From an uncultured virus (IMG/VR IMGVR_UViG_3300022822_000010) (lineage: Duplodnaviria; Heunggongvirae; Uroviricota; Caudoviricetes), in the IMG/VR virus record IMGVR_UViG_3300022822_000010: a stretch of DNA of 64,000 nucleotides; one strand, given 5' to 3'. The notes below the pieces were generated by a model. It worked only from the letters and a program-made list of their open reading frames with translations. It was not told the origin of the DNA and made no database searches. Every line of letters begins with the position of its first letter. Within the stretch, counting starts at the first letter, position 1. Of this stretch, positions 41,354 to 63,197 are shown in pieces. The position numbers and the translations under genes are program-made.

Positions 41354-41398
41354 TTAAAAAGGTATATCTTCAATCATCTCAGGGTCGTAATCTGACAT
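41354..41398 (-). CDS. Putative micropeptide MSDYDPEMIEDIPF (bacterial SSB C-terminal-tail-like)
   Basis: Hand translation; TGA-T-ATG junction like neighbouring coupled ORFs. Confidence 0.4.
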   Translation of the reverse strand: MSDYDPEMIEDIPF

Positions 41399-41409
41399 AT
41401 CATGCCATA

Positions 41410-42015
41410 TTACACCATCCATATTACATAATGGCACATAAACAATACACTAAACGCAGAAATAATTATTGGGATCGCGCCGAAAACTATACACAACCAC
41501 ATACCCATTACCCAATCTGACGCATCACTGAAGTTAGACATTATTGCGGCAACAGCCGCAGTAAACAAAAACATAGTAACGCCAGACCCAACAAGCTTGC
41601 CTGCTATATCCATTAAGTCCATATTACATCACCCAAGTAGTATAATAAATAACAGTACCCAATACCGCAGCCATATAGATTGGGCCAGAAAAATCTTTAG
41701 CTTTTGTATTTGGTAGTATGCGCTCACATACCCAAACTGTGAAAATATATATGGCTGATAAAATTATTACAGATTCCATATCAATTACTCCATATCTTAT
41801 AAAATAAAAATATTACAACGCCGGTTATAATAGTCAAACGCAAAATCTCTATTAAATCCATATTACATCACCCAAGTAGTATAATAAATAATGCCCAATG
41901 CTAAAAGCATATAGATGGGGCCAACAAGAATCTCAGCTTTCGTATTTGGTAGTAAGCACTCACATATCCAAGTAGTGAAATACAGTAACACGAACATAAT
42001 AAATACAGATTCCAT
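41410..42015 (-). CDS. Tandemly duplicated small membrane proteins (41410-41622, 41624-41779, 41781-41861, 41863-42015)
   Basis: Two MESV...LPNTKA...GPIYM...YYTTWVM paralogs, each followed by an MDL... hydrophobic ORF; joined by TAATATG/TGATATG. Confidence 0.65.
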
Positions 42016-42017
42016 AA

Positions 42018-42484
42018 TTAATCCTTAAGTGAATAATGAATATACATTATATTTTCGCGGGATATAGAGAAATTCCACTTGCTCATCATAGGCTCTCTTT
42101 TTAATATTAACCATTTGATATGCTTGACAACTTTATCCATTACGGCTAGTCGTCGCTTATTATACTTTGTGTTAAACATCGCGCCCCAAGAACTGTCGCT
42201 CTTATCTAACAGCTTCATATAATAATCAAGAAGCTCAGACAATCGAGAATCTTTTTCCAAGGGCATGATATAATCGCGGTTAGCTTTCCATTGAGTAATC
42301 ATTACACCGTCCACGCGCTATAAGAGCCGCAAGCTAATAATACGATCAGCGATAAAAGAAAGATATCTCTCATGACCTTATCGACAGTCTTCGATATTTT
42401 ATCTTCAGGTACATACCGCACTGCTAGTAAGTCTAAAAATATCACTAGTCCAGCAAATAACGCTAAACTGCTTATGATTGTCAT
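42018..42484 (-). CDS. Two hypothetical proteins (42018-42302; 42302-42484 membrane)
   Basis: Coupled ORFs. Confidence 0.55.
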
Positions 42485-42496
42485 ATAATCTCTCTC

Positions 42497-43066
42497 TTAG
42501 TTTGTCTTAAAATATTCATTGACAAAGTATTCATTAACTATGCCCTCTGCTTCATTCCATAAGCCTTCGTCGCCGCCAACAAGAACCTCTAAACGGTTAC
42601 TCATTTCGACCATCCACACTTTAGCAAGATTTGGGTCCTCCCTAATAATACTTTTACTATTACAAATAATATCAGCGAGCTTTACTGTCTTGGCTTTGTT
42701 AGATACTGTAGCGAGCCTCTTACAATCTTGAGCCTTTCGGAAGGCGCGATTACCCGCATCTTTTGGGCAGACATCAGTAAGTTCTACAGCTAAATCGATA
42801 GCATTAAAACTAAAGCCGTATTCGTTTGCTCTAAGGTCTGTTTCGGTGTAGGGTGTGTCTTCTATGACATCGTGTAGAATAGCTGCTACGACCATATCTA
42901 TGTCGTAATAAGCAGCAGTCATAACTTTCTTGGCAACTTCGATAGGGTGAACAATATAACGCTCACCGCTATATTTACGTACTTGATCGCCGTGAGCCGC
43001 ATCAGCGAATTTTACAGCCCAGTTAATAAGGGCTTGGCTTCGTGGGTAGTCGATACCGTGATTCAT
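42497..43066 (-). CDS. RelA/SpoT-type HD-domain hydrolase (small alarmone hydrolase/Mesh1-like)
   Basis: AHGDQVRKYSGERYIVHPIEVA, AAILHDVIEDT, VKLADIICN motifs. Confidence 0.85.
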   Translation of the reverse strand: MNHGIDYPRSQALINWAVKFADAAHGDQVRKYSGERYIVHPIEVAKKVMTAAYYDIDMVVAAILHDVIEDTPYTETDLRANEYGFSFNAIDLAVELTDVCPKDAGNRAFRKAQDCKRLATVSNKAKTVKLADIICNSKSIIREDPNLAKVWMVEMSNRLEVLVGGDEGLWNEAEGIVNEYFVNEYFKTN

Positions 43067-43127
43067 ATTAATACCTCAATTAAGTATCTATTATAACCTA
43101 ACTAATTATAAAAGTAAAGCTTTATTT

Positions 43128-43385
43128 TTAAATTCTAAAGTTTCTGTATCCATGCTGAAGCATGCGATCAATCCATCGAGCCTCGCGATACCCTGGCAAT
43201 ATTGTTTCGAACTTATCATAGTATTGTCCGAATATACCACTTACTAGAGTACGATTAGTTTCACCAGCGAGCGACTTCTTGTAGTTCACCAATATTACTT
43301 TTATTCTGTCCATATGGTTTTCGGTCTCGCAAGATGCGATTATCTTTTCCAACTTCATATACGTATCAAATTTATTCGTCATCAT
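43128..43385 (-). CDS. Hypothetical protein
   Basis: Likely true start MMTNKFD overlapping the end of the ArfA-like ORF. Confidence 0.5.
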   Translation of the reverse strand: MMTNKFDTYMKLEKIIASCETENHMDRIKVILVNYKKSLAGETNRTLVSGIFGQYYDKFETILPGYREARWIDRMLQHGYRNFRI

Positions 43386-43515
43386 CGTCTTTACCTTTGT
43401 GCTTTTCTTTGCGGTTGTACTTGGTCTCATCTTCTTCGACGCGCATTTTGAACATCGGTGTACGGACGATAGCCAAGACTTTGTTTTTAACTTTTGCTTT
43501 TTTCTTCTTGGCCAT
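43372..43515 (-). CDS. ArfA-like (alternative ribosome-rescue factor A-like) protein, 47 aa, missed by ORF track
   Basis: MAKKKKAKVKNKVLAIVRTPMFKMRVEEDETKYNRKEKHKGKDDDDE; N.....L/V..P.F+.RVE...Y.RK.KH pattern; GGTGA RBS. Confidence 0.6.
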   Translation of the reverse strand: MAKKKKAKVKNKVLAIVRTPMFKMRVEEDETKYNRKEKHKGKDDDDE

Positions 43516-43526
43516 AAGAGGTTCAC

Positions 43527-43727
43527 CTATTTACCTAGAAAGTAATTTACTAAAGATTGCTTGTGATTAAAGATTTGGATCAACTTTTGCTCTTCTTGAG
43601 GAGCATTTTTCGCTTTGCTCTCCCTAATAGTTTTCATCTTATTAAGAGCTAATATGTTAAGGGTGCCGAGATCGATGGCGCCATACTGCTCGTCTGTTAA
43701 AGGGCTGTACATTGTAATTGTTTTCAT
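43527..43727 (-). CDS. Hypothetical protein
   Basis: First ORF after the promoter at 43761. Confidence 0.55.
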   Translation of the reverse strand: MKTITMYSPLTDEQYGAIDLGTLNILALNKMKTIRESKAKNAPQEEQKLIQIFNHKQSLVNYFLGK

Positions 43728-44035
43728 AATAAGGTGTCTCTCTCTATCAATTAAGTATTAATTATACTGTATAAAACGGGGTAAGTCAAGTGGTTTCTTA
43801 GATTGTTTTAGAATATTAATTGTTTTTCTTATACCGCTGCGTTTGCGGTTTTTCTTATTAGGTAGGCGATAATTGTTCTGTTTTTCTTCTTCAAAATATT
43901 TTTCTTCTTCAATCTTCTATTATTTAACAAACGGAAAATCCTCTCTCTATCAATTAAGTATTAATTATACCGTAATTGATAGGAGAAGTCAAGAAGTTAG
44001 TTAGATTGTTTTAGACTAAGGAGGGGGTTTTTATA

Positions 44036-44626
44036 CTAAACGAAACAAGACAGGCATTCATCATCTTCGACCATCCAACCATATTGCCTAAGTCTAACTA
44101 CATCTGCGTCTATAATGCCTGCTTCGATTAGCGATTTGATATCGGTGCTATATACTTTATCATGTTCAGCCGCCTCAATACCCGCTTTAGGTAGATATTT
44201 GCGTATAACTGTTAGCCCGTTATAAACATCGCAACCAGAAAACTCTCGAATATCATCTATGGGACTGGCTTGTATAATTTCAATAAATCGATGGAAGTCC
44301 ATTTCAGGAGATATCGGCATTGCTATTAATTCGCCTGCTCGCTCGCTCGTGATGGGTCGATAACCGCCTTTACATTTATTGAGGTAATCGGCAAGCGCAT
44401 CTTTGCCTGTTTTATAATGGCTTGAAGCCTTAAACTCACTGATGCGTCCATTAACAATATTGATAAAAGACCAAACATCTTCTGCTTCGCGATAGCCTAT
44501 ACGATATGTATTTGCCCTTATATCATATTCACTCTGAGTGTTCTCTGGGTGTTCATTACTGGTCACAAATCCGCCAATCATAATATCTTTTAATTCCCAT
44601 TCATGCGTTGTAATCATTATTTCCAC
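44036..44626 (-). CDS. Hypothetical protein (possibly a two-domain fusion)
   Basis: ORF track; C-terminal AEHDKVY...GW motif. Confidence 0.55.
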   Translation of the reverse strand: MEIMITTHEWELKDIMIGGFVTSNEHPENTQSEYDIRANTYRIGYREAEDVWSFINIVNGRISEFKASSHYKTGKDALADYLNKCKGGYRPITSERAGELIAMPISPEMDFHRFIEIIQASPIDDIREFSGCDVYNGLTVIRKYLPKAGIEAAEHDKVYSTDIKSLIEAGIIDADVVRLRQYGWMVEDDECLSCFV

Positions 44627-44828
44627 CTTTTGTATATAAATCTGCCATCCATTCGAATTCTGGCAGAGGTAAGTAATCTAATCCATATTGAACTATTCCG
44701 CCACCTATTCCTTGAGGTAGCGCTATTTTGGTTTCAGGGACCCAAATTTTCATTAAGCTTTCGGACTTAATAAAAACCGGCGCTGCTAGTATTATTCCAG
44801 CACCCTTTAAAAAATCGCGTCTATTCAT
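44601..44828 (-). CDS. Twin-arginine (Tat) signal-like protein
   Basis: Begins MNRRDFLKGAGIILAAP. Confidence 0.65.
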   Translation of the reverse strand: MNRRDFLKGAGIILAAPVFIKSESLMKIWVPETKIALPQGIGGGIVQYGLDYLPLPEFEWMADLYTKGGNNDYNA

Positions 44829-45142
44829 TATATATCATCGCAACGTTTAGTGTAGCATGTTGAACATAAGACGCATAGCAACTTCCTACCCGAAACATCT
44901 TCTGCATGGGGGCAATAAGACTCTGCTACGCCTAACCCTTCGTTGCCGCAATCTTCGCATTCTAATTTATCTTCATAGAATTCGAAATCGGATAGAATTT
45001 CTGCGGCTCGTTTTATGTCTATAGCCTCTTGAAGCTTATCAATCTTGGATTGCTGATACGCCCAAACACTACGCGCAGATGCCTTACCGATAGTTTGGTC
45101 TATTGTCTTAAAAAATTCTTCAAATTCTTTTTCGTTAATCAT
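44828..45142 (-). CDS. Zinc-finger hypothetical protein
   Basis: CEDCG...CPH...LCSTC motifs. Confidence 0.55.
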   Translation of the reverse strand: MINEKEFEEFFKTIDQTIGKASARSVWAYQQSKIDKLQEAIDIKRAAEILSDFEFYEDKLECEDCGNEGLGVAESYCPHAEDVSGRKLLCVLCSTCYTKRCDDI

Positions 45143-45404
45143 ATTAATCCTGCCATAGTTAAACAAAGTATTGCCAGCGGCATATCTCGACTAGACGAAG
45201 GGCTTGGTGTAGGGTATCGCGCTTCGTGTTCGCGGTAGGCCTGAATCTCAATCTGTAGGCGATTATAGGCTAGTGCTGCGACTTTCTTCTTTTGATTATT
45301 ACTCACTACACTCTCCCATGATCGCCTCAATAACTTCGTCTTCTTCTGTAGGGGCTTCGAAATACGGATCAAACCATATTTCTTCGATTAACTCAGCTAT
45401 TAAC

Positions 45405-45809
45405 TCATCCATTATATAGGTTATCCAGTAGTTTGGGATTAAACTCACGCTCAGTAAACATCATATAGAACTCACTCTTCCAATCATCGGGTTCCATCAC
45501 GTCATGAATATGCTGAATCGAATTAATTAAATTTACTTTATTCTCATCAAGTAAACCACTTGTAAAATCGGAAAAACCCGTTCTTTCCATTTCTGGTTTA
45601 TAATTCTGAACAAATGGTCCAGCACCACACGTCTTACCATCAATACCATTGTACACGCATAGCTTGAAAAACTCGTTGGATTTGGAAGATTTTTCGGTTT
45701 TATAATCTACTTCGGATTTTTGGCCTTGCTCTTCTAAATGAGTAGCAGCCAATAGCGCTATTTGCTCAAGCGTATAATCTTTTGGGTTGTATTGTCCTAG
45801 TGTAGCCAT
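45405..45809 (-). CDS. Hypothetical protein (paralog B1)
   Basis: MATLGQYNPKDYTLEQIALLAATHL, identical to the start of 46823-47227. Confidence 0.7.
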   Translation of the reverse strand: MATLGQYNPKDYTLEQIALLAATHLEEQGQKSEVDYKTEKSSKSNEFFKLCVYNGIDGKTCGAGPFVQNYKPEMERTGFSDFTSGLLDENKVNLINSIQHIHDVMEPDDWKSEFYMMFTEREFNPKLLDNLYNG

Positions 45810-45813
45810 GATA

Positions 45814-46245
45814 CTATTCCTCTTCTTCATTATTAAGGGTTTCGATAAAAGTCTTGAGAGATGTATACCCTCTTTTTCCTTTACAAAACGTCCAACCTAA
45901 TTCTACAGAGTACACATACGCCCACTCTTCTTCACACACTTCTTTTAGCGAACTAATTTTCCATCCGCCCTGATGAGTTTCGCCTCGGTCACGACCATAA
46001 GCCTTTGTCCATTTTTTACGTTCATCAGTATCTTCTAGATACTCTTCGAAGTCGTGTTGCTCTCCAATACATTGCCCAAGGGTACTTATATTACCGAGCG
46101 CGATAAGCTCACGGACTTTTTCTTCTGTGTCATAGTACTCAAAAAGAATAGCGCCGTTATGCTGAGGGTATCCATCCATATGGCAATAGATAACGTCATA
46201 TAAACCATTTTCGTTTAGAATTGCTATGTTAGATCTTGTGCTCAT
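45814..46245 (-). CDS. Conserved phage early protein (paralog A1)
   Basis: MSTRSNIAI...IYCHMDGYP...LIALGNISTL...YGRDRGE motif. Confidence 0.7.
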   Translation of the reverse strand: MSTRSNIAILNENGLYDVIYCHMDGYPQHNGAILFEYYDTEEKVRELIALGNISTLGQCIGEQHDFEEYLEDTDERKKWTKAYGRDRGETHQGGWKISSLKEVCEEEWAYVYSVELGWTFCKGKRGYTSLKTFIETLNNEEEE

Positions 46246-46759
46246 TATGCTACCCTCACTAATTTATAATCGAATGCTATGTGATAAACATTTTTTGAAG
46301 TATCTTCTCTGAATACGGCATACCCGCATCTAGCTAGTTGCGCAAACTCGCCTAGTTGCCCTAGTTGCCCTGCCGCGCGATCTGCTCGAACAGGGTCTGT
46401 AACAGTTTCAGTAAACATAAGATCTTTAGATGCGTAATGTACCTTAGCAGATTTTATATCGTTATTTTTAAATAGTAATCCACGAGTACCTTTTGCTATC
46501 TGAAAGCAATTCATAATATATTCTCTCTCTCTCAATTAAGTATTAATTATACTATAATTCTTTAAATAAGTCAAGCGATTTCTTCTGCCTTATCAATTTT
46601 ATTTCTTAAATTAATTCTGGCTTTGTGAACCGCAACGCGAGTAGCGGTCATATCGTCGTCGTAGTCATCTAGATCGCATCCTGCTGCGCGAAGCTCTCCC
46701 ATCAGAAATACCATCTTGGTTAAGGTTTCGTGCTGCATCTTAATTTTTTTTAGGTTCAT
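46245..46759 (-). CDS. Two hypothetical proteins (46245-46514; 46571-46759), each behind its own promoter
   Basis: Promoters at 46546 and 46789. Confidence 0.55.
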
Positions 46760-46822
46760 AATATATTCGCTCTCTCAATTAAGTATTAATTATACTATAA
46801 TTCTTCCCTGAAGTAAAGCTTT

Positions 46823-47227
46823 TTATTTATTCCCGTATAATTCATTAAGCGGCTGAACGTCATACCCCATTTTACTAAACATTTTATAGAATCTCTGTTC
46901 CCAATCTTCGATATGCGAATTATCATGTATTTGTTGGACTTCGCATATCATTTGGGTTCTTTTCCCGTCTAGATCGCCTGCTATAAACTGGCTATCAAAC
47001 AAAGATGATTCCATTTCTACGTCGTAATTCTGAACGAATGGGCCTGCTCCACAAGTTGTCCCGTTTGGGCCATTATACATACATATCTTTGAAATTCCTG
47101 AATGCGGAGGTAAGGCAGGGTTTTCAGCCTCGCTCTTCGCACCTTGCTCGTGTAAATGAGTAGCAGCCAACAGCGCTATTTGCTCAAGCGTATAATCTTT
47201 TGGGTTGTATTGTCCTAATGTAGCCAT
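46823..47227 (-). CDS. Hypothetical protein (paralog B2)
   Basis: Paralog of 45405-45809. Confidence 0.7.
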   Translation of the reverse strand: MATLGQYNPKDYTLEQIALLAATHLHEQGAKSEAENPALPPHSGISKICMYNGPNGTTCGAGPFVQNYDVEMESSLFDSQFIAGDLDGKRTQMICEVQQIHDNSHIEDWEQRFYKMFSKMGYDVQPLNELYGNK

Positions 47228-47241
47228 AATATTAAATCTCG

Positions 47242-47655
47242 CTATTTATCGTCAATTTTTGTTTTTAGTGATAAGAATTTGTTTTTATCTTCGCAGTAAA
47301 TCCAACCATAATCAGCAGCAAACGCATAAGAATAATCTTCTTTAGCGATATCTTCGATCTGAAGAACATTAAAGGATTCGTTATCTTTCTCCCCCCTATC
47401 GCGGCCATAGGCTCTTGTCCAAGTTACGCGTTCATCGTCGGCTTCATAACACAATCCGGCATAGTGTTGCTCTCCAATACACTCACCTAGAGTGCTAATG
47501 TTACCAAGTGATATTAACTCGCGCACCTTTTCTTCGGTATCGTAATGTTTAAAAAGAATAGCACCTGCATCGGATGGATAACCATCCCAATGAAGGTATA
47601 TGACATCGAATGAGCCATTTTTGTTTCGGATTGCTATGTTGGCGTTGGTAGACAT
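47242..47655 (-). CDS. Conserved phage early protein (paralog A2)
   Basis: MSTNANIAI...IYLHWDGYP...YGRDRGE; paralog of 45814-46245. Confidence 0.7.
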   Translation of the reverse strand: MSTNANIAIRNKNGSFDVIYLHWDGYPSDAGAILFKHYDTEEKVRELISLGNISTLGECIGEQHYAGLCYEADDERVTWTRAYGRDRGEKDNESFNVLQIEDIAKEDYSYAFAADYGWIYCEDKNKFLSLKTKIDDK

Positions 47656-47723
47656 AATGTATTCGCTCTTGATCAATTAAGTAACTATTATACCGTAATT
47701 CACTAGAGAAGGCAAGAGGTTTC

Positions 47724-48149
47724 TTATACCGATTCGCTATTACTCAAGCGGTTTATATACGCATCACGTCTAGCTAATTCATCATAAAACGATCGTATAA
47801 AATGAGGTAATATTCCTGGGACGTTTGATAATGTGCGCGCAATATGAGTTGTAGACATATCTTTTAGTTTTACATATGTCAATGGTTGGTCGCCGTTAAT
47901 TCCGCGCGTACCCCAAGTCATTACTTCGCGGATTTCTTCAATAGTGTTTTTGTCATCATCATATAAAGCAAGATTAATCTCATCACCGTGACACGATCGA
48001 CGACTATAACTCAACCCGCCATCAACCATATAAGTTTTACCATTATCATCAACATACTCTTTATAGTCATGAAGGTGGCGAGATTCTAAAACAGTGCCGT
48101 CAGGCGTTTGTATTGCGTTTCGATATAAGCTCATTTTGTATTCTCTCAT
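47724..48149 (-). CDS. Conserved phage hypothetical protein
   Basis: LESRHLHDY...MVDGGLSYSRR...WGTRG motifs. Confidence 0.65.
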   Translation of the reverse strand: MREYKMSLYRNAIQTPDGTVLESRHLHDYKEYVDDNGKTYMVDGGLSYSRRSCHGDEINLALYDDDKNTIEEIREVMTWGTRGINGDQPLTYVKLKDMSTTHIARTLSNVPGILPHFIRSFYDELARRDAYINRLSNSESV

Positions 48150-48157
48150 TATTAAAT

Positions 48158-48335
48158 AGGTGAGGGAGACCGCCTTCCACGCTTATCCTCATTATCAACC
48201 TACAGATCATTATAGGGGTTACAATCTCGGCCTGATATCCACTATGTACAATCGGCTAATCTATACATCATTTACCCATACCCCGTAGGGCATGGCGCCA
48301 AGGTTACGCATTGTTAAGAGGCGTGACGGGACACT
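48158..48335 (-). ncRNA. Candidate structured RNA
   Basis: ORF-free, more GC-rich gap with at least four hairpins, including CCATGCCC-TACG-GGGTATGG. Confidence 0.5.
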
Positions 48336-48336
48336 T

Positions 48337-49391
48337 TTAATCGGCTAATCTGTACATGAATTCTCGGATTACTTTAACGCCAGCCTCATCCATTCTATGA
48401 CTTTGTTTTAGAATTTCTGAAGCAGTAAACGTCTCAAGAAAGATGGCAAGGTAATTAGCTTCATAGTCATCTAGGACTATAGTTGTTTTAATAGTCGTGA
48501 CTTCTTCTTTTGATATATCCATGATTAACTATCTTCTAGTTTTAATCGAGTAGCGCCGCATATTTGGGTCGCCAGTTCAGCTACGCACTCCGCCATTTCC
48601 ACCGATAACCCAAACTCTTCCATTTCATCGATAGACATTTTTTCGATGAGTTTAACAAACGCTTTTGCCTCATATGGGGACATATAAACCGCAATTTCAA
48701 TTTGTCGCATTACTTTTGCCATTATAATTCACCTTCGTCTATTTCAATTTGACCAACGTTACATATCTGAGACGTCAATTCGGTTACACAATCTGCCATT
48801 TCTGTCGATAGGCCAAACTCTTCTATTTCGCCTATAGACATTCGGTCGATTAGCGTAACAAAAGCCGTAACAAAAGCTTTTGCCTCGTCTGGAGACATAA
48901 AGACCGCTATTTCAATTTGTTGCTCTACTCTCGCCATTATAGTAGACTCCTCAATGCGTTATCTAATTCTGTATAGATTTCGCTGAAGTGAACTGTTTGC
49001 TCTTGAGATAAGCAATCTTCCATATCGCTAGGGCGAACTGTCGCCATAAAGGTTCTTAAGGCAGTTGCTTCTTCTTCGCTTAGTTCTAAGACTACAGACT
49101 TTTTAATAGTTGTTTTCATAATATATTCTCTATTGATTAGTTAAGTATTAATTATACCGTAATAGGCCTAAGAAGTAAAGATGTTTCTTAGACCGTTTAG
49201 CTATATTAAGATGAGAATTTGCTTAGCTCGATCTTTAATCCCTGTTGAACTTTCGTGACCAACTCTATCTCTTCTTCACTTACATTTGCTCTTATGGTAG
49301 AAGGGCGAGTTGAAGATAGAAAGTTAGATAGGGCAGCAGCTTCGTGCGAAGAAAGGGTCAAAACAATCTCTTTGTTAGTATGCGCTTTCAT
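48337..49391 (-). CDS. Array of five ~60-70-aa paralogous proteins (48337-48522, 48525-48722, 48722-48937, 48937-49119, 49206-49391)
   Basis: Shared beta-strand then (L/M)S..EA..(L/F)..(F/L) helix pattern. Confidence 0.65.
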
Positions 49392-49484
49392 AATGTATTC
49401 TCTCTAGTGTTTCGATCAATTAAGTAACTATTATACCGTAGTAGGCCTAAGAAGTAAAGAACTTTCTTAGACCGTTTAGCTATA

Positions 49485-49968
49485 TTAAGATGAGAGTTTT
49501 AGTCTTCTTACTTTATAGAAAGATATTAAGTTATCCGTCCAAATCAATACGTCTCTTTCATATTCACACTCTTCTGGAAGCATACATGAATTAATAAACT
49601 CTACAATATCTCTTCGATCTTCTTCGAGGGCCTTTATTAAAACATCCAGATTTTCTACATTACGATTAGTTTTCATATTAGCACCTAGCTAGTGGATCAT
49701 TATCAAAAAAAGACGGATCGTCATAATTAACGACAACTGCGGTTAAGCAAGGCTCACTCGAAAAGCCATTCTCGACTGCTGGCGTATGAGCCTGATTAAG
49801 CGCTTCTTCGGTGGCGGTGGTTTCGCTGTTTCTAGCAGGATCAATCGAGTGAACAAAAACTAAATCTAAGTGCTCTTTCATAATTCTAACTTGGTCGTTC
49901 GTCATCGAGTTATTACCCGACATCTCAAAATGGCCTTGTAGCCAAAAACAAAAATCTACTGGGTTCAT
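49485..49968 (-). CDS. Two hypothetical proteins (49485-49676; 49678-49968)
   Basis: 49678-49968 has the common phage FCFWLQGHFE...IMKEHLDLVF motif. Confidence 0.6.
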
Positions 49969-50156
49969 ACGTAATATGCCTCTGCTAATATTAAAAGAAA
50001 TTGAAGGGTGAATGCCGCAATGACCAGAGGCGTGAAAAGATAGTCGTTGACGATAGGCTCCAACCCTAGATCGGCGCTCGCTTTGTTGAGATACTTGATC
50101 GCTTCTTTTTTCGGCATATTACCGACGTCAATATAAGTTATTTTACGTTTTTTCAT
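49965..50156 (-). CDS. Small membrane protein carrying a T4 portal (gp20)-like YIDVGNMP motif
   Basis: KRKITYIDVGNMPKKEAIKYLN followed by a C-terminal hydrophobic helix. Confidence 0.6.
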   Translation of the reverse strand: MKKRKITYIDVGNMPKKEAIKYLNKASADLGLEPIVNDYLFTPLVIAAFTLQFLLILAEAYYV

Positions 50157-52085: not shown

Positions 52086-52152
52086 AATTTAATCTCTCTA
52101 TCAATTAAGTAACTATTATACCTTACTTCTTCCCTGAAGTAAAGCTTTATTT

Positions 52153-54561: not shown

Positions 54562-54574
54562 ATGTTCTTTAAAA

Positions 54575-54650: not shown

Positions 54651-54657
54651 AATAAAA

Positions 54658-54875: not shown

Positions 54876-54881
54876 TTAAAT

Positions 54882-54957: not shown

Positions 54958-54979
54958 AAATCACTTAATAATTTAAATC

Positions 54980-54987
54980 TATTTATA
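54980..54987 (-). promoter_or_regulatory. T4-type late promoter upstream of the tRNA cluster
   Basis: Exact TATAAATA about 23 nt before tRNA-Asn. Confidence 0.65.
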
Positions 54988-54992
54988 CGTTC

Positions 54993-55208
54993 CTATTTCT
55001 CTAGAATGACGAATTCACCAAAATATTCATCAAAAACAGAAATTAGATTATCATAATCTTTATCCATAGTGAGGCGTTTAAACTCTTCAAAACTTTGCCC
55101 GGTCTGTCGGCAATATTGCTGCGCCCTTGCTAAAAGACTAAAAGCATTTCCATCAGGGCCAGTAAGGTCAATGATTACTATCTGATTAATTAATTTGTCT
55201 CGAATGAT
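54993..55208 (-). pseudogene. Conserved phage hypothetical ORF with ATC in the start-codon position
   Basis: Open frame IRDKLINQIVIIDLTGPDGNAFSLLARA...YDNLISVFDEYFGEFVILEK*; the cassette RBS context ends TATATTATC instead of TATATTATG. Confidence 0.55.
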
Positions 55209-55274
55209 AATATAAACTCTCTTCTCGATTAACTAAGTACCTATTATACTATATCTACATTAGAAAGTAAAGCT

Positions 55275-56588
55275 TTATTTTCGTTTTTTAATAAATAATT
55301 TTATCAGATCAATAACAATTACCGAAAACAACCATACAACATATACTATAAACAAGCAAGCCCATAACACTAAAAACGGCGATTCCATATAGCCTCTGCT
55401 TACTGCTTCAAAACTTGTCACACAATTATCACCGAGTAGCCTAATGTATGTTCAAGTTGAGCCAAGGTCATAGTGATCGGCCTTAACCCTTGGATTTCAT
55501 TCTCAAGGCGATCTAGCTTTTTTAAGGCGACATTGACCGCATCGCGATTCTCATCAAGTCGTTCTATAATATCATAGCCCTCATTTTGAAGCCTAGTTAC
55601 TGATCGCCTTAGTCTAAGATGCTTCATTTGCATCAATCTTAAATTAGGTTTCCTCATTACAACCCTCTCGATTTCGATCTTTTAACTTCCATCTACCCAT
55701 TTCTATATCAACCACCTTACTCTCGATTTGATCTTGAAGTATTTTAATATCAAGAGAATGAGCAGCAATCTGTAAAGTTAATTCACCCACTTCGTGAGTT
55801 TCGCTTCTGACATACATTATAAGCTCTTGTGTAGTGCATGTTTGAAAATTAATCATTATGACATTTCCTCTCTAGGTCTTTTTGAATCGACGAAGCTTTG
55901 CGATTGTGACGTTCTGGTAACTATGTCTAGTCAACATTTTATTATCCTCCACTAAATCTATCGGTTGGTTCACTTCTTAGCTGCCAATCATGAAAAGATT
56001 TAAACTCTCCATTTTTAACTACGACTATCGAAGTCCGAGTTTCTGGGTTAGTCCCTACGACCAAACCAACGTTTCTTTCCCCGATAAAGGCGTCTCGACC
56101 TACTTGTATTTTGTAGGTCTCGGTTATCGTAACAGTTATATCATTTGCAACTCTAGATAACTTTTGTTCTTCTTTTGCTTTCTCTTCATTTAGCTGAGAA
56201 TAAGCTTCAGCGTATAGATTACTCATGTTATTTGTCCTTTAATCGTTTTAATATAGGGATCAAGACATCTTTATGAGCCTCGCAGAATTCTTCAGGAGTA
56301 GGGTCAAGCTTTTTGGTTTCTGGAACAAGGACGACTTCTTTGTTCTTGTTTATAGCTTCGTATACTTTACCCCAAACATCATTCATCATGTTAAATACTC
56401 TCTCTTAATTTTTGTATACGCAAAGCTATATCAGCCATATGTGGGTTCTCTGTTAAAAATTCTAACAAATCTTCGGTCGATACAGGCCCGTCTTGTTTAC
56501 CCCACAACTCGCAGGAAGTGTAGCAATCAAAGAAATTTTCTATTTCCTTACTCATTTTAGATATAGCAATAACGCTTTCTGCTTTCAT
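55275..56588 (-). CDS. Operon of small hypothetical proteins (55275-55388, 55418-55657, 55644-55856, 55942-56226, ~56228-56389, 56391-56588)
   Basis: Packed ORFs behind the promoter at 56620. Confidence 0.55.
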
Positions 56589-56660
56589 AATGTATTCGCT
56601 CTTGACCAATTGAGTACCTATTATATCGTAGATATTCACTAAAGTAAAGCTTTATTTTGC

Positions 56661-57248
56661 TCAATTAGAAAATACTTTCAATACTATGCGTTTTGTACGC
56701 CCTGAATCGAACTCTATAAAAGGGGCATACTTTAGAAGACGACTTTTTATATCAGGCCAAAGAATAGTATCATTGATATCTTTATCAACTCGCCCTATAA
56801 ACCCTAATAACTTATTCATGATCACAACGGTTTCAATGCCTATTTCTTCAGCCAAATACGCCTTCACGATAGGGGGCAGTTGCCCATTCTCGCTTTTGAA
56901 TAACTTATCGAATGACCCAAACTCTTCTTCTAGCTTCATGAGATCTTCTTCAAGTAAGTAACCAAGCGACTCATATCGCTTTAGCCACTCATCATACGTA
57001 TTTTCATCTTTGAGCATATCCCCAATCCAAGATGACCCGTTAACGAAGTGCGATACATAGAAATTTATAAGGCCTTGTCTATCGTTAAACTTTTTGCCTG
57101 CTTTGGCAAAAAAATACTTATCCCGCCGGTTCCAAAAAGATCGCTGCGTTACCCTCGTCTTAAAGTTATACTTGACAGCATCATAACTTTTTGTTTCGAA
57201 GTGAAGCTTCAGCGCACTGTAAATAGAGTATGAATCAAATGGTTCCAT
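56661..57248 (-). CDS. gp59: Helicase loader gp59
   Basis: YSALKLHF...YDAVKYN...F.NRRDKYFF...IETVVI...KYAPF motifs; adjacent to gp33. Confidence 0.9.
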   Translation of the reverse strand: MEPFDSYSIYSALKLHFETKSYDAVKYNFKTRVTQRSFWNRRDKYFFAKAGKKFNDRQGLINFYVSHFVNGSSWIGDMLKDENTYDEWLKRYESLGYLLEEDLMKLEEEFGSFDKLFKSENGQLPPIVKAYLAEEIGIETVVIMNKLLGFIGRVDKDINDTILWPDIKSRLLKYAPFIEFDSGRTKRIVLKVFSN

Positions 57249-57249
57249 A

Positions 57250-57474
57250 TTAAATAGGAAGCGAATTCCCGCCTTTTATGTAATTTTTAGAAATGGCTTC
57301 AGCTTCGAGTTTATCTCTTACTGCGTTAGAAATTAGTTGGGACGTGCTTGAAGGGTCCGTATTAGTCTCTTCGCAAAGAGCTAATATAGCATCAATATAC
57401 CCCAACCCTTCATCTTTAACTTTACTCTCAACATTCATAGAGAAAGCTTTCTTAGATATAAATTCCGCAAGCAT
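57250..57474 (-). CDS. gp33: Late transcription coactivator gp33
   Basis: FSMNVE...YIDAIL..CEE...LIS...DKLEAEA...LPI pattern. Confidence 0.85.
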   Translation of the reverse strand: MLAEFISKKAFSMNVESKVKDEGLGYIDAILALCEETNTDPSSTSQLISNAVRDKLEAEAISKNYIKGGNSLPI

Positions 57475-57759
57475 CTAGATATTTTCTCCCGATTTAAAAT
57501 CAAATACATTCTCTGCTTTGAACGAGCGCCAGCCCATAGCTAAAGTATCGAATACAGGCACGACATTAGACTCTTTCATCGCCTTCGCTTTTTCTGGAGT
57601 TGGGTCAGGTTTCGGTTCATTTTTAGGAGCAAACTCAGCCGGGATTAACTTGCTGTTAAGCGTGCAAGTCATCACCCGCTTGTCGCCATTTACTTTAGTA
57701 AAAGAGACCACACAAGAACCCTTACGCAACTTCGAAACTAACTCATCTTTATTAAACAT
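57475..57759 (-). CDS. WYL_2/DUF2693-like SH3-fold protein
   Basis: VSFTKVNGDKRVMTCTL...VFD....GWRSF motif. Confidence 0.75.
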   Translation of the reverse strand: MFNKDELVSKLRKGSCVVSFTKVNGDKRVMTCTLNSKLIPAEFAPKNEPKPDPTPEKAKAMKESNVVPVFDTLAMGWRSFKAENVFDFKSGENI

Positions 57760-57791
57760 AATTATCTTCCTATTTATCAATTAAGTACCTA

Positions 57792-57995
57792 TTATACTAC
57801 CTTTTCATTTAAAAGTAAAGCTTTATTTACTTTTTTAAGCTTGGCCCCCGCACCAATTAACCCGTTATGAGAAGCCGACAGCGGACAATATGTGATGCCA
57901 GCTTTCCAGTACAAATCTAAGTCTTTACAATAATACAAACCCTTATCTATTTCTTCAGAAGAATGATACGAGAATGCTAAATGCCTGTTATTCAA
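57792..57995 (-). CDS. Hypothetical protein
   Basis: Coupled ORF whose 3' end contains an early promoter. Confidence 0.45.
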   Translation of the reverse strand: MNNRHLAFSYHSSEEIDKGLYYCKDLDLYWKAGITYCPLSASHNGLIGAGAKLKKVNKALLLNEKVV

Positions 57996-58180
57996 AATAT
58001 GTTACCCCCAAATTTTAGTTGTTTATCTTCACGAGCTAGTCGGTCAACTTCGTAAGTTGACAGAGTACCCTCTATCACCGCCACCCGATAATGAAACTGC
58101 TCTTCAGTAATATGAGCCTTCATAAATAAGTCTATTAGATCTTCCATACCTCGGGCGATTTTGTTATCTGATTCGATCAT
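57992..58180 (-). CDS. Small protein ending in LKFGGNIF, the same C-terminus as the Alt-like ART
   Basis: AGGA RBS; direct comparison with 59015-60838. Confidence 0.65.
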   Translation of the reverse strand: MIESDNKIARGMEDLIDLFMKAHITEEQFHYRVAVIEGTLSTYEVDRLAREDKQLKFGGNIF

Positions 58181-58189
58181 GAGTTTTCC

Positions 58190-58444
58190 TTAGTTCCAAT
58201 CGTTATCGCGGCCAACGGTTTCTTGATGAGCATCACCATAAAACTCTTTAGCATAAGCCGACGAGTCTGTGTAATGATTATAATTCTCATCCATCTTATC
58301 GAGCATCTTATCTATCTTCTTTGTTTCGCGGCGACTATGAGCTTTCGAAGCTTCAACGCCGGTCTTATTAGCAAGGCGCTCTTTAAACACTATGCGGTTA
58401 TCTAATTTCTTCGCTACTTTCGCAATCATTTCTAGTCTATTCAT
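58190..58444 (-). CDS. Hypothetical protein
   Basis: First ORF after tandem early promoters. Confidence 0.6.
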   Translation of the reverse strand: MNRLEMIAKVAKKLDNRIVFKERLANKTGVEASKAHSRRETKKIDKMLDKMDENYNHYTDSSAYAKEFYGDAHQETVGRDNDWN

Positions 58445-58704
58445 ATATTTTTCTCTTCTCTAGTTAAGTAGTAATTATACGCTTATTTGTTAATAAAGTA
58501 AAGCTTTTTCTTAGACCGATTAGTTATAATAAACTAACTTATTATCTAATGTTTATCGCTTGTGTTTCGATCAATTAAGCATTAATTATACGCGAGTTAA
58601 CGCATAAAGTAAAGATATTTCTTATACCGTTTTGTACTAAAAAACTTAGTTTTTATATCTACCTAGAATAAGGTAGGTTTACCCCCTGAATAGAGGGTAT
58701 TTAG

Positions 58705-58974
58705 TTACGCACCACCAAAAAGAAAAGTCGTCGCCATCACAATCCCTGTGCTACAAATAGTTATACCAATCCACTGAACCGCTTTGGCTACTAGTTTCTG
58801 ATTAACCATTTCTATTTCTAAGTCGCGTAGTCGCGTAGGCATGTCGCTCATTTGATCCAGAAGTATAGTCATCCTATCAATCCCCCGCTCTAGATGAGTC
58901 ACCATACCCGCTAACCTATCTTCGTTGCTCTCAAGCCTGCGAAGCCGCTCTGTTACATCTCGTTCATCGCTCAT
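58705..58974 (-). CDS. Coiled-coil protein with a C-terminal TM helix
   Basis: Heptad pattern and hydrophobic C-terminus; late-promoter-like CTAAATA upstream. Confidence 0.6.
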   Translation of the reverse strand: MSDERDVTERLRRLESNEDRLAGMVTHLERGIDRMTILLDQMSDMPTRLRDLEIEMVNQKLVAKAVQWIGITICSTGIVMATTFLFGGA

Positions 58975-59014
58975 CGCGCTTTCGCCCCTTTACACACTTA
59001 CCCTATATTTAGCT

Positions 59015-60838
59015 TTAGAATATATTGCCTCCAAATTTTAGGTCGCGGTCAGCTTTTTCTTCTTTGCTCAAACTATCATAATAGTCACTATACGATTTAT
59101 CATCTTTTAATCTTTTACCCTTAGACCTAGATGACTCACTAAGGAAATCACTCAGAAACTTCGCTCTTTCTAGTTCATTATTTTCTTCTTTGATATTCAG
59201 TTCTCCGCTTCCATCAATCACAACATACTCAATCCCGATATCCCATCCGTCTTTATCACTTTTCTGATAAGCATGAAAGTTTATAGGAGTCATGAGGGTC
59301 CCGCGTGACACTATAATCTCTTGCTCAGTTCTGTGAGATGAGAGATTGCCGGGCATCACGACTTTTATTTTTTTAAAATCTTGTCTGGTATATATAAACA
59401 AACTAGCTTGTTCTATCCAAAATGGCGCGTTTGGGTTGTTATACTCGTCCCAAGGGTTTTCAGGTATAAATTTGCTCTTACTAGTTTTCACCATGTGTTC
59501 CATCATCTCAGACCCGCTAGTTGTCTGAAAAACTTTATTACCATCTATCTCTGTTGCTCCATTCATTACAACATTATCCATATCTCTCTGATCAAATTTC
59601 CCGAATTGAGCAGCAACTCTCAACTCTGTAGAGAACGAAGTGTAACTGGGTAGAGCGGTAATCGAGTCTGAAAATATACGTTTCAATGTAACTCCATGCT
59701 CATTCCCATATCTCGCATCAAGCCCCATCCCTCGATAGATAAATCCACGATACCCATCAAGATTATGGCCGTGCTTTTTAAAAGTCATATCAAGACCTTC
59801 TAGTACTTTAACACCTTCTTCCGCAGCAGCTCCAGTTTCTTGTCCTTTCATAACTCTTCTAGCGGCATTATAGCCGTTACCCGTAAAGAACTTTAATGCT
59901 TGAACACTATCTCTTTCGCCAAAATCGATAGGAGTATGAAGCTCTTCCGTCTCGACGAACATTCTACTAACTTCGTGCGAGAAGTTTGCAGCGAGTTCGT
60001 TCTTGCTTCCAAAACCGCTAGCATTTGAGTCATATTTCAGCCATTTACGTCGCATCTCAAGAGGAGCCGTTCTGGTGACAATAGGCTGTAATCTTCTGAG
60101 TTCTCTATTCTCTTCGGTCTCAACCCCGGGAAAAAATAAAGTCGAAAGATCGAGCGTCAACTTTTTACTTAATTGCTTTTCTTTCTTCTTGTGGTCAACA
60201 ACAGATGTGACAAAGTCTGCATTGGTTGATAAACCTTGGAAAGTCATCGATACATCAAGCTTTGAGAATTTTGAGAAGACGTTTTTGAATACCACACTTT
60301 GAGGTTTAGTTTTTACGTGAGCAAACACTATAGCGCCACCGTTAGAGTTATCTGCTGATAAGTCAGCAGAGTCTACGCTCATTACGCTTTTCAAAGAAGA
60401 CCTTTTGAATGCTCGTAGTATAAGTCTACTGTACTTAGCAAATTTTGGCTCAAGGAATATCATTAACCCCTCGGGCTTATTGTCGCCGTAATGACGATCG
60501 ACTGCTTTGATAACCATACTGATAAAGGATGTAGGTTTTTTTATAGTTTTCAGCGTTGTATGTATTCTCCCTCTCAAACCATTATCTGGATCGACGGGGT
60601 GGATCGTAACAGATTGAGCATTTCTACCTATTCGAACATCGTGAGCGTGCCAGCGATTCTCAAATCTTATTAGAAAGTATTCAGTAGTGGAACTCGATGA
60701 TGGGTAATATCCAACATAATATTGCCGAGAAGCTGTCCACTTTTTTTCGAGTACGGGACCCGAGCCGATCAAAACGTCGCCGACGCTATCGAGTACTTCG
60801 AGTAATAATTGGTTTTCATTAAGTATTTCTTGCGACAT
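59015..60838 (-). CDS. alt: Alt-like NAD:protein mono-ADP-ribosyltransferase (probably virion-packaged)
   Basis: IYRG, YTSFST and EQE (R-S-ExE) catalytic motifs; N-terminal LLLE resembling a gp21 cleavage site; late promoter at 60871-60878. Confidence 0.75.
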   Translation of the reverse strand: MSQEILNENQLLLEVLDSVGDVLIGSGPVLEKKWTASRQYYVGYYPSSSSTTEYFLIRFENRWHAHDVRIGRNAQSVTIHPVDPDNGLRGRIHTTLKTIKKPTSFISMVIKAVDRHYGDNKPEGLMIFLEPKFAKYSRLILRAFKRSSLKSVMSVDSADLSADNSNGGAIVFAHVKTKPQSVVFKNVFSKFSKLDVSMTFQGLSTNADFVTSVVDHKKKEKQLSKKLTLDLSTLFFPGVETEENRELRRLQPIVTRTAPLEMRRKWLKYDSNASGFGSKNELAANFSHEVSRMFVETEELHTPIDFGERDSVQALKFFTGNGYNAARRVMKGQETGAAAEEGVKVLEGLDMTFKKHGHNLDGYRGFIYRGMGLDARYGNEHGVTLKRIFSDSITALPSYTSFSTELRVAAQFGKFDQRDMDNVVMNGATEIDGNKVFQTTSGSEMMEHMVKTSKSKFIPENPWDEYNNPNAPFWIEQASLFIYTRQDFKKIKVVMPGNLSSHRTEQEIIVSRGTLMTPINFHAYQKSDKDGWDIGIEYVVIDGSGELNIKEENNELERAKFLSDFLSESSRSKGKRLKDDKSYSDYYDSLSKEEKADRDLKFGGNIF

Positions 60839-61664
60839 GTATAAATTCTCTTAAGGTTTGTTCAATCTTATATTTATAAGCGACTAATTTTTTAGCATAT
60901 CCATCATAACCTATTAATTGACCTAGGATACAAGCATTAGTATCTGTATCGCCTCCAAGTTGAATAATCCCTAGTATTGATTCTTCATAGTCAGAAGAGT
61001 AAAGATCTAGCGCATTGTTCCAAGACCCCTCACAAAAACCCGTAACGGTTCTGTTATTGTTGCTTGTTCTATAGTGTTCTATAGGGGTACTTTCGCCCTT
61101 GTAAATACTCTCTAACATTCTACCCATAAAATACGCGCTCTCATAAGCGATAGTACCGTGACTAACATCAACGACTCGCTTGTAATAACGCTCTTTATCT
61201 TTATTTTTAATTTGGTAAATAGACCATAGAGCGTAAGGCGCAAGCTTCATTAATATACCATTACCGCCAACATTCTCTTCAGGAAAATATAACCCGTTTT
61301 CAGACCAACCCTTGTATGCGTCAAAAGTCGCGTGACCTATATCGAAGCATACATTATTTGGGCAGAATTCACCCATATCAATGTAATCGCCCATAATATT
61401 TGCTTGAGCGTATTCATCAAACCCCTTCTCATTAATAAACGACCGCATAGCTAACGTCATCAGAATAGTATCATCGGTAACGCTACCAAACTTATGCCCA
61501 AATACATTTGTTGGGTTATCTCTTTGCACATCTTCAAAACTGGATAACAAAGGTATATTTTGTGCTGCTTTGAACTCGTAACAGGACCCGTACATGTCCC
61601 CGACAACACCACCCCAGAAGGACCGTTCAAAGTTATCATCTATTTCGTTAGTTCCAATTATCAT
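60819..61664 (-). CDS. ADP-ribosylglycohydrolase (DraG/ARH family)
   Basis: GDMYGSCYEF, TDDT, GNGILM, GGDTDTNA motifs; ATG overlaps the gp52 stop. Confidence 0.9.
   Translation of the reverse strand: MIIGTNEIDDNFERSFWGGVVGDMYGSCYEFKAAQNIPLLSSFEDVQRDNPTNVFGHKFGSVTDDTILMTLAMRSFINEKGFDEYAQANIMGDYIDMGEFCPNNVCFDIGHATFDAYKGWSENGLYFPEENVGGNGILMKLAPYALWSIYQIKNKDKERYYKRVVDVSHGTIAYESAYFMGRMLESIYKGESTPIEHYRTSNNNRTVTGFCEGSWNNALDLYSSDYEESILGIIQLGGDTDTNACILGQLIGYDGYAKKLVAYKYKIEQTLREFIHVARNT
60871..60878 (-). promoter_or_regulatory. T4-type late promoter for the Alt-like gene, inside the ARH 3' end
   Basis: Exact TATAAATA about 33 nt upstream of ATG 60838. Confidence 0.7.
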
Positions 61665-62980
61665 TTTAGTTCCCCAAGATCTGTAGAAAATTGCTCTGCT
61701 GGATCCGTGGCCTCCCAATATTTAAAGTTAGCCTCTTCTTTCTTAATCTGATCGTTCAATGAATCGACCATTTCTTTAGTTAGATTAAGAATGTTTAATT
61801 TTAATAGTCGCTCGCAGTCTTCGTCAGTGACGAGTACCAGCGCATCATGTATTTGAGATATTATATTACTCTTGGTCATACCTAGGAAAACGATCTCGTC
61901 AGTCAACACCGCATTAATAAAGTCGCGCTTCTTCTGTAACCAATCGCATGTAGCAGCGGTTTCTTTTCGACGTAGATCAATACGAGCGCCAAGGATAGTA
62001 TTACGAAAATTAACAAAGTCTTTGATTAGCTCTCGTTCATCTTTATACTCTCTCAGTTTACCATCAAACCCTATGACAGTTAGATTCTCTGAGTGACTCT
62101 TCTCAAGCTTAAACTTAGCGATAACTTTGTCGTCGGTATTTAAAGCTTTGGCCGTAGTGTTTCGAAGCTTTACCTCAAATTGAAACCCAACAGATGAGCA
62201 CTGGTCTTCGTATGATATAATGTCTCCATCATCGTCGAGCTTATCTAATACTTTAACATAAGCTTCGCGATCATAGCCGTAAGGAATCTCTGTAATGATT
62301 ACTTTAGTACTTACTGGGCGCTTATATATTCCTCGACAAACAAACCTATCTGTAGTCTCATTATATATCGTTTTGCCTTTAAAGTCAGGAAACGATACAC
62401 CAAGCCGCTTTTTAATCTTACCAGTCTTTATATACTCTTTACAAGCAGCAATTAAAGCTTTTTCGGAACGGGGTAAAATGTTCGTAGCAAAACCAGTGGC
62501 AATACCCTTGGCGCCATTAGCTAGTACTAAGGGTATGACAGGAATATAAAACTTAGGAGGACTGTGTTCAGGGTCGTCGTGAATAGGCGCAAGATCAACG
62601 TCTTTTATATGTCGCTTAAAGTTAGCGTGAAGCTTTGTGTACACGTAACGAGCAGCGCCAGCAGCTTGTATTTGACGAGTACCGAACGAACCCCGACCCT
62701 CAACTAGACAAATGTTATTATTCCAAGCTGCGGCCATTAACTGACCTGCGCCAGCAGCCGAGGTCTCGCCATGATTATATCCGTAATCAGAAACCACACC
62801 CGATACCGCAGATACTTTCTTAAAGTTAGCAGAAGTATTTATTATAGAGCTGTATAGATAAAACCGTTGTACAGGCTTTAGTCCATCTATCATACTAGGA
62901 ATAGCACGAGACTCGATGGTGTACATAGCAAACTCGCGCATTTCGTTATTAGCGATCTGGCTCAGATTATACTCATTCAT
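61661..62980 (-). CDS. gp52: DNA topoisomerase II medium subunit gp52 (GyrA/ParC-like)
   Basis: RAIPSMIDGLKPVQR, YNHGE, AARY (catalytic Tyr), NGAKGIATGF motifs. Confidence 0.95.
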   Translation of the reverse strand: MNEYNLSQIANNEMREFAMYTIESRAIPSMIDGLKPVQRFYLYSSIINTSANFKKVSAVSGVVSDYGYNHGETSAAGAGQLMAAAWNNNICLVEGRGSFGTRQIQAAGAARYVYTKLHANFKRHIKDVDLAPIHDDPEHSPPKFYIPVIPLVLANGAKGIATGFATNILPRSEKALIAACKEYIKTGKIKKRLGVSFPDFKGKTIYNETTDRFVCRGIYKRPVSTKVIITEIPYGYDREAYVKVLDKLDDDGDIISYEDQCSSVGFQFEVKLRNTTAKALNTDDKVIAKFKLEKSHSENLTVIGFDGKLREYKDERELIKDFVNFRNTILGARIDLRRKETAATCDWLQKKRDFINAVLTDEIVFLGMTKSNIISQIHDALVLVTDEDCERLLKLNILNLTKEMVDSLNDQIKKEEANFKYWEATDPAEQFSTDLGELK

Positions 62981-63011
62981 ATATTACTTCTCTTCGTCAA
63001 TTAAGTACCTA

Positions 63012-63197
63012 TTATACTATACCTATCCCTAGAAGTAAAGCTTTTTTTTCTTCTTCGGTGGTATCAGGGTCTCTAATGATTCTCATCATAGGATTAAACA
63101 AAGATTTGCCTTTGCCGGTGCCTGCGCTTATCGTATAGATTTCACCAACCTTCACACCTCCCTTGGTGGGTTCAAGATGACCAAATATGTCTTGCAT
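63012..63197 (-). CDS. Small protein carrying a gp41/DnaB-like Walker-A segment
   Basis: TKGGVKVGEIYTISAGTGKGKSLF; only about 60 aa. Confidence 0.55.
   Translation of the reverse strand: MQDIFGHLEPTKGGVKVGEIYTISAGTGKGKSLFNPMMRIIRDPDTTEEEKKALLLGIGIV

Follow-up and report, generated by a model that had tools for sequence, protein, structure and literature searches.

The window analysed here, a 64,000-nucleotide stretch of the uncultured caudovirus record IMG/VR IMGVR_UViG_3300022822_000010, comes from a distant T4-like phage with genes for a T4-type baseplate, gp2/3/4-like proteins, gp32, gp59, gp33, the topoisomerase subunit gp52 and an Alt-like enzyme. Its gp52 is at most 43% identical to those of cultured phages, and a megablast of positions 41000-50500 against phages gave no match. 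We focus on four short open reading frames (ORFs), each carrying a segment that resembles part of a larger protein: P0001 (portal clip), P0002 (helicase Walker-A segment), P0003 (C-terminal octapeptide of the ADP-ribosyltransferase Alt) and a 14-codon ORF that ends like the tip of SSB, the bacterial protein that binds single-stranded DNA. A preceding sequence-only reading had taken them for a repertoire of decoys expressed from early cassettes. All four are present on the minus strand with the strings that it reported, and their early setting is borne out: between 28 and 64 kb the minus strand encodes nearly all genes and bears 22 exact copies of the sigma-70-type promoter TTTACT-N17-TATAAT, whereas the plus strand has none. 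The promoters form part of a repeat roughly 75 nt long, present in at least 16 copies, at least 14 of which fall at 40-64 kb. The portal and Alt-tail cases are solid, that of the SSB tip is left open and that of the Walker-A segment is weak. The coordinates are collected in Table 1.

The P0001 gene lies in the middle of an operon, shares a 4-nt start/stop overlap with each neighbour and has the ribosome-binding site GAGGAAG. Residues 3-29 match positions 205-231 of the 433 positions of the Pfam family Portal_T4 (PF07230) with E = 3e-4 and 20.1 bits, a score below the gathering cutoff of 22.9 bits, such that P0001 does not qualify as a portal; the portal profile phrog_213 matches with E = 2e-4. 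A tblastn search of 50,697 phage records matched 674 of them, and among the 40 matches listed, 35 were annotated as portal, two were the same gene otherwise labelled, one was unannotated and two fell on an unrelated gene. When the profile of the mini-protein family described below was aligned with a profile of ten portal clip regions, hhalign returned a probability of 98.0% (E = 1.7e-13) over 36 columns. In a control scan of 51 further small ORFs, no phage core family was matched at E <= 0.5. The clip-tip motif Y-[IV]-D-x-G-N-M-P with its following helix is present, with P0001 carrying YIDVGNMPKKEAIKYL, and AlphaFold2 predicts one helix at residues 16-29, corresponding to portal helix alpha6, and another at 38-62. 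A portal proper has about 500 residues arranged as wing, stem, clip and crown; in the 63 residues of P0001 the homology is confined to a 36-residue part of the clip. When the window was searched with portal proteins, they matched at the P0001 site alone, with no flanking portal-like sequence in any frame, and thus no larger portal pseudogene surrounds it.

An exhaustive search of 1.84 billion representative proteins placed P0001 in a family of four members of 63-72 aa, the relatives P0006, P0008 and P0009 being 85%, 47% and 38% identical to it. All four match Portal_T4 (best E = 1.6e-5), and the family profile had three matches among the PDB sequences at E <= 10, all of them chains of T4 gp20 at residues 281-306 with E of about 0.03. 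The portal motif, a lack of whose preferential conservation would have spoken against the sequence-only reading, is the best-conserved part of the family: mean pairwise identity is 63% for the motif, 46% for the linker and 40% for the tail, and the corresponding invariant columns number 8 of 21, 3 of 13 and 4 of 26. No sign of decay was found. At the C-terminal end of all four members, the best 19-residue stretch has a Kyte-Doolittle mean of 2.28-2.57, which we read as a predicted tail-anchor membrane helix. Judged by this pattern of conservation, P0001 is a real gene under selection and not a decaying one.

The case of P0003 rests on its last eight residues, LKFGGNIF, which are identical at all eight positions to the last eight of P0004, an Alt-like ADP-ribosyltransferase encoded about 1 kb upstream. 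The two sets of codons differ at four third positions; since all four differences are synonymous, the peptide is under selection and is no fresh copy at the DNA level. Over the last 20 or so residues, 12 of 20 aligned positions are identical, the final eight exactly. Further, P0005, a protein 72% identical to P0003, retains DKQLKFGGNIF despite an indel just upstream. Among 135 ORFs there is one other pair alone that shares a C-terminal 5-mer or longer, namely two paralogous membrane mini-proteins, and the computed chance of sharing LKFGGNIF in this set is about 4e-7. P0004 has a recognizable ADP-ribosyltransferase domain and P0003 does not: the predicted structure of the latter is a three-helix bundle unrelated to Alt, with a tail (residues 58-61) at pLDDT <50 and predicted to be disordered. 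This low-confidence tail matches, in the model, the appearance of a docking peptide. The synonymous changes and the retention in P0005 mark P0003 as a real gene under selection that displays a putative docking segment of Alt.

Searches for further relatives of this pair were negative. The P0003 alignment found no relative in an IMG/VR scan and merely an unrelated bacterial locus in a metagenome scan; a degenerate KFGGNIF-stop pattern had a single antisense chance match in IMG/VR; tblastn of the Alt tail against phages was uninformative; P0003 had no match in the ESM Atlas and P0004 no relative in the PDB by sequence. In one related locus that we inspected for a positional counterpart of P0003, other ORFs occupy the position. 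We also considered LKFGGNIF as a sliding-clamp-binding tail and dropped the idea, there being no clear likeness to the tails of gp33 or gp43. The gp33 gene, which encodes the late-transcription co-activator, lies nearby (57250-57474, minus strand) and its product ends in KGGNSLPI, while the gp33 tails of 60 related marine loci read GNxLP[ILV] or close variants; the gp43 of one relative ends in ATLDEFF. Directly upstream of the P0004 gene, with a 20-nt overlap, is a gene for an ADP-ribosylglycohydrolase (60819-61718, minus strand; Pfam PF03747, E = 5e-28), and the two look like a writer and an eraser of ADP-ribosylation.

The 14-codon ORF ends in an acidic tip of the D-[IL]-P-F type (...DPEMIEDIPF and then a stop). 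The pattern [DE]D[IL]PF followed by a stop occurs once, against 0.015 expected per random window. Alternative starts would lengthen the product, an ATG at 41422 giving 22 aa and a GTG at 41437 giving 27 aa, and at these lengths there is no bacterial SSB OB fold. Two membrane mini-genes leave a gap of 75 nt, in which the ORF follows a stop-start series (TAA-T-ATG-GCA-TGA-T-ATG), and because of this preceding chain reinitiation at it is conceivable. A frameshift that would fuse the upstream membrane gene to the DIPF frame was considered and dropped, as we saw no slippery site. Since the phage's own gp32 (28282-29184) has a different C-terminal end, the model for the EDIPF tip would be the SSB of the host. 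The string is real, and the gene is a candidate one. The neighbouring small membrane-protein genes form a run at 41410-42015 (minus strand) with TAA-T-ATG stop-start junctions, and two paralogues among them end in YYTTWVM.

Residues 11-39 of P0002 match the strand and Walker-A segment of DnaB-family helicases such as T4 gp41 and T7 gp4, including the string AGTGKGKS. By BLASTP, 15 of 28 residues are identical to P60 gp4 and 14 of 23 to gp41 of Aeromonas phage 65. A tblastn search matched 93 phage records with a best database-wide E of 0.03; 33 among the 40 matches listed are annotated as primase and/or helicase, four have no feature annotated there and three lie on other genes. P0002 has no helicase match in Pfam (DnaB_C, PF03796, included) or NCBIfam even at E <= 10, no match to a PHROG profile and no relatives in our searches, and the ESM Atlas gave leads only, in the form of short DnaB_C-like clusters at scores of 0.90-0.93. 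The P-loop pattern by itself is not unusual, with five seen in the window and 2.85 expected. The likeness to the DnaB-type H1 segment is probably real but marginal. In contrast to the helicases, the ORF stops 28 residues past the P-loop without Walker B or later motifs: its last 14 codons make up the UP element, the -35 box and the -10 box of the gp52 promoter, and the stop codon lies inside the -10 box. RecA-type ATPases hold the Walker-A strand and loop inside the core of their fold, where neither is exposed for docking. We consider P0002 most likely to be a remnant of a DnaB-type helicase gene, or a fragment captured from one, that now reads into a promoter, and not a mimic.

Table 1. Coordinates in the 64,000-nt window of the four short ORFs, the Alt-like enzyme and the early promoters of their units
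Feature	Positions	Strand	Description
P0001 gene, 63 aa	49965..50156	-	portal-clip-like N-terminus, then C-terminal membrane helix (predicted)
P0001 codons 2-37, portal-clip-homologous segment	50046..50153	-	strand, GNMP tip, helix alpha6; T4 gp20 ~281-306 and onward
P0001 codons 40-58, 19-residue hydrophobic stretch	49983..50039	-	Kyte-Doolittle mean 2.28
Early promoter, P0001 unit	52115..52143	-	exact TTTACT-N17-TATAAT
P0003 gene, 62 aa	57992..58180	-	predicted three-helix domain and flexible C-terminal LKFGGNIF; AAGGA ribosome-binding site
LKFGGNIF codons in P0003	57995..58018	-	repeat shared with the Alt copy
Early promoter, P0003 unit	58474..58502	-	exact TTTACT-N17-TATAAT
P0004, Alt-like ADP-ribosyltransferase, 607 aa	59015..60838	-	phrog_26651 E = 4e-11, phrog_802 E = 6e-10; LKFGGNIF codons 59018-59041
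14-codon ORF MSDYDPEMIEDIPF	41354..41398	-	tail resembles the bacterial SSB C-terminal tip
Early promoter, 14-codon-ORF unit	43090..43118	-	exact TTTACT-N17-TATAAT
P0002, 67 aa (61 aa from Met7)	63012..63215 (63012-63197 from Met7)	-	residues 11-39 (63099-63185) DnaB-family H1/Walker-A-like
Early promoter of topoisomerase gene gp52	63011..63039	-	exact TTTACT-N17-TATAAT, inside the last 14 codons of P0002

The stretch is contained in four metagenome runs, two of which are possibly its source; no RNA run is listed as containing it. Their contigs, compared over 41300-61299, showed no sequence variants inside the three of our ORFs within that interval. A contig from one of the runs matches the window only at 50131-50172, that is, over the 42 bases of the P0001 start and its ribosome-binding site, with both flanks unlike the window; it may derive from a diverged relative. 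A search with gp59 yielded 80 IMG/VR loci whose gp59 is about 50% identical and which cover only part of those genomes; none of them has any of the four ORFs (best E = 0.47), and an exact 42-mer search of IMG/VR had no match. Elsewhere in the window, a two-gene module (phrog_17693 and phrog_1987) is duplicated in tandem at 45405-46245 and 46823-47676 (minus strand), the two DNA stretches being 94% identical; nine tRNA genes (two for Arg and one each for His, Lys, Phe, Asp, Glu, Met and Asn) are clustered at 54114-54957 (minus strand); and a gene at 5389-12438 (minus strand), in the baseplate/fibre region, encodes a protein of 2349 aa matched over nearly its whole length by phrog_358, a family of unknown function.

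We read the four ORFs as separate cases of docking-segment mimicry without a single decoy system. Nothing links them: they belong to four separate transcription units and share no sequence. That each would consist mainly of one fragment was an overstatement, as P0001 also has a predicted membrane helix and P0003 a predicted three-helix domain unrelated to Alt. Mini-proteins of two further kinds had been counted tentatively in the same class. The sigma4-like kind found no support, with no match to Pfam Sigma70_r4 among 57 ORFs scanned at E <= 0.01 or 51 at E <= 0.5 (overlapping sets), the sole sigma match in these scans being Sigma70_r1_2 at E = 0.097. A Tat-signal ORF does exist (44601-44828, minus strand, 75 aa; TIGR01409, 17.6 bits versus a cutoff of 16.7), the remainder of the protein being without a match.

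What stands of the original idea is the saturation of partners, a reasonable reading where the segment is an exposed docking one, as are the tips of portal and SSB and the tail of Alt, but not for the buried Walker-A segment. The basis in hand comprises sequence relationships, conservation, early-promoter context and predicted topology. On this basis, the account that we favour, although we would put it at slightly less than an even chance, is that of four unrelated small early ORFs that form no one system, two of them being real, selected genes whose products present a docking segment taken over from some large protein of a phage. Such mini-proteins would probably compete for the partners of the large proteins.

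For P0001, the comparison is with the T4 portal protein gp20. Its clip (residues 279-358) protrudes from the capsid and docks first the terminase gp17 and later the neck protein gp13; N291, M292, R295 and K296 contact gp17, and packaging is abolished when they are mutated (PMC4493910). A synthetic 24-residue peptide of gp20, 288-311, on its own binds gp17 and inhibits packaging (PMC4493910, citing Lin, Rao and Black 1999), and T4 proheads begin their assembly on the inner membrane (PMC4493910). Residues 3-28 of P0001 align with gp20 281-306, the D-x-G-N-M-P tip and the next helix being common to both, and residues 10-33 are the counterpart of the inhibitory peptide. P0001 differs from that peptide in being a natural 63-aa gene product with a predicted membrane anchor. 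By this analogy, P0001 and its relatives would be tail-anchored membrane mini-proteins whose cytoplasmic N-terminus is the first half of a portal clip, and P0001 itself most likely mimics the clip from its membrane anchor and there binds one of the clip's partners, with the large terminase as the most probable one. Packaging by a terminase bound in this way would be held back or redirected, be it that of the phage itself early in infection or that of a co-infecting relative.

Blocking packaging via the terminase is already known from TerI, a small phage protein of the TERi system of Listeria prophages that acts in phage-phage competition (bioRxiv 10.1101/2025.02.27.640495); the design by portal copy is new. 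TerI differs in being encoded by prophages together with two self-immunity proteins, and its abstract makes no mention of portal mimicry. The two are likened by description, and the action of P0001 on a terminase is our proposal.

Several points weigh against a terminase-binding P0001. Two of the four gp17-contact positions of T4 are not retained in the family: the equivalent of N291 varies (N/N/D/K), and that of K296 is an invariant Glu, whereas among 42 distinct portal segments it is K or R in 32 and E in two. Therefore, terminase binding by P0001 is possibly altered or absent. The family counts just four members among the 1.84 billion representative proteins, and an IMG/VR scan with it kept 80 loci that were all portal genes, without a mini-protein. 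The copying of a protein of the phage's own is conjectural, its portal, terminase and helicase being encoded outside the window, and a constitutive terminase binder would be harmful to the phage's own packaging unless timed or specific. P0001 may have a specificity different from that of the T4 clip, or its partner may be the portal itself.

The latter option leads to the first of the competing explanations, in which P0001 is a portal-assembly helper, gp40-like in function and anchored in the inner membrane, where its clip-like strand and helix would associate with portal subunits to nucleate or position the dodecamer. T4 portals are assembled at the inner membrane with gp40 and YidC, and the clip strands form an inter-subunit sheet (PMC4493910); the strand residues Y8 and D10 are among the invariant residues of the mini-family, and the Glu that reverses the charge at the position of K296 might match up with lysines of the portal. 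P0001 has no sequence relation to gp40, however, with an hhalign probability of 0.1% against gp40 of Aeromonas phage 65, and homology to gp40 was accordingly dropped. Its gene also sits within an early unit amid accessory genes. Because the family is rare and absent from the gp59-anchored loci described above, in which only part of those genomes is covered, P0001 is unlikely to be a core assembly factor, and we regard the helper explanation as distinctly improbable next to a clip mimic acting on a clip partner.

P0003 would most likely dock on, and compete for, the same partner as Alt. P0004 resembles T4 Alt and the Alt-like ADP-ribosyltransferases in the PHROGs that it matches, and its N-terminus (MSQEILNE...LLLE) resembles the MEILNEVLDE of the Alt of Citrobacter phage Merlin; we take this N-terminal stretch to be the counterpart of the cleaved capsid-targeting peptide of T4 Alt. 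On the other side stands the fact that T4-group Alt proteins have other C-terminal ends, as in Merlin, where they read ...DINNLPERFIN and ...DIDDMPRKFR in place of LKFGGNIF.

The 14-codon ORF, if translated, would furnish a free copy of the docking tip of the host SSB and could compete for SSB-binding enzymes. The C-terminal hexapeptide of bacterial SSB, DDDIPF, is a conserved interaction hub (PMC5872125), and the ORF likewise ends in E-D-I-P-F after an acidic run. Peptides mimicking the SSB tip have been designed as inhibitors of SSB-partner binding (PMC10143822), and a literature search of listings and abstracts gave no description of a natural stand-alone phage mimic of this tip. The putative product differs from SSB in its 14-27 residues without OB fold or linker. 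Two observations speak against the ORF: a canonical ribosome-binding site is missing at the customary spacing, and relatives were absent from the same 80 gp59-found loci and not obtained by tblastn of the 27-aa form against phages, the latter search being uninformative.

A bolder version joins these cases as a display of docking peptides, in which a membrane-anchored portal-tip copy titrates the large terminase (either the one the phage itself makes, for as long as proheads are not ready, or that of a T4-like competitor), a small helical protein with the Alt tail competes with injected Alt for its partner, and a 14-residue peptide copies the host SSB tip. We hold this to be unlikely in its full extent. 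It resembles the short-linear-motif mimicry of eukaryotic viruses, where a short viral copy of a docking peptide takes over a partner (PMC10694346), with the difference that in two cases here the copied protein (portal, Alt) is the phage's and not the host's. In the literature listings and abstracts that we searched, we found no account of mimicry of a phage's own structural or injected proteins as a device of timing or competition.

Alternatively, the ORFs could be debris of recombination between promoter cassettes, that is, captured gene pieces that are open by chance and functionless. Metagenome contigs join between copies of the promoter repeat, of which there are at least 16, and this suggests cassette shuffling. 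P0002 ends inside a promoter and has no relatives, no remains of a parent gene flank P0001 or P0002, and none of the four ORFs is present in the relatives whose gp59 is about 50% identical. Against debris, P0001 relatives down to 38% identity keep the length, motif and membrane helix, and the tail of P0003 has persisted both through synonymous changes and in the relative that is 72% identical. In addition, codon bias is in-frame in all four ORFs (+0.15 to +0.63 log-odds per codon, the other five frames being negative), a value that carries little weight for an ORF as short as 14 codons. As an explanation for the whole set, debris is accordingly improbable; for P0002 alone we favour it, at about an even chance.

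The weakest alternative is the original one, a coordinated early repertoire that saturates host sensors of portal, helicase, SSB or Alt without triggering them: the ORFs do lie in early units, the portal motif is conserved in the mini-family, and sensors of portal, of primase-helicase ATPase domains and of other core proteins exist, but the Avs sensors are described as recognizing whole folds over extended interfaces (both points from bioRxiv 10.64898/2026.01.04.697583), which a segment of 25-36 residues would not fill, the helicase fragment is a buried strand and P-loop, the ORFs lie in separate units without a common feature, and the scans of Pfam, PHROGs and NCBIfam, which did not extend to PADLOC, matched no defence or anti-defence family, which makes it very improbable. 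The remark that no such coherent system had been described holds, in that a search of literature listings and abstracts yielded no description of fragment decoys.

We return to separate mini-proteins, each displaying its own docking segment. If P0001 binds the terminase, nature would have its own equivalent of the laboratory peptide that blocks packaging in T4, and the timing or sabotage of genome packaging by phages would become simple to approach. The tail common to P0003 and Alt points to a docking site that Alt, as an enzyme injected for host takeover, would use. On a wider scale, a search of small phage ORFs for conserved short copies of exposed segments of large proteins could give testable partners to some of the many early genes that are at present without a function.

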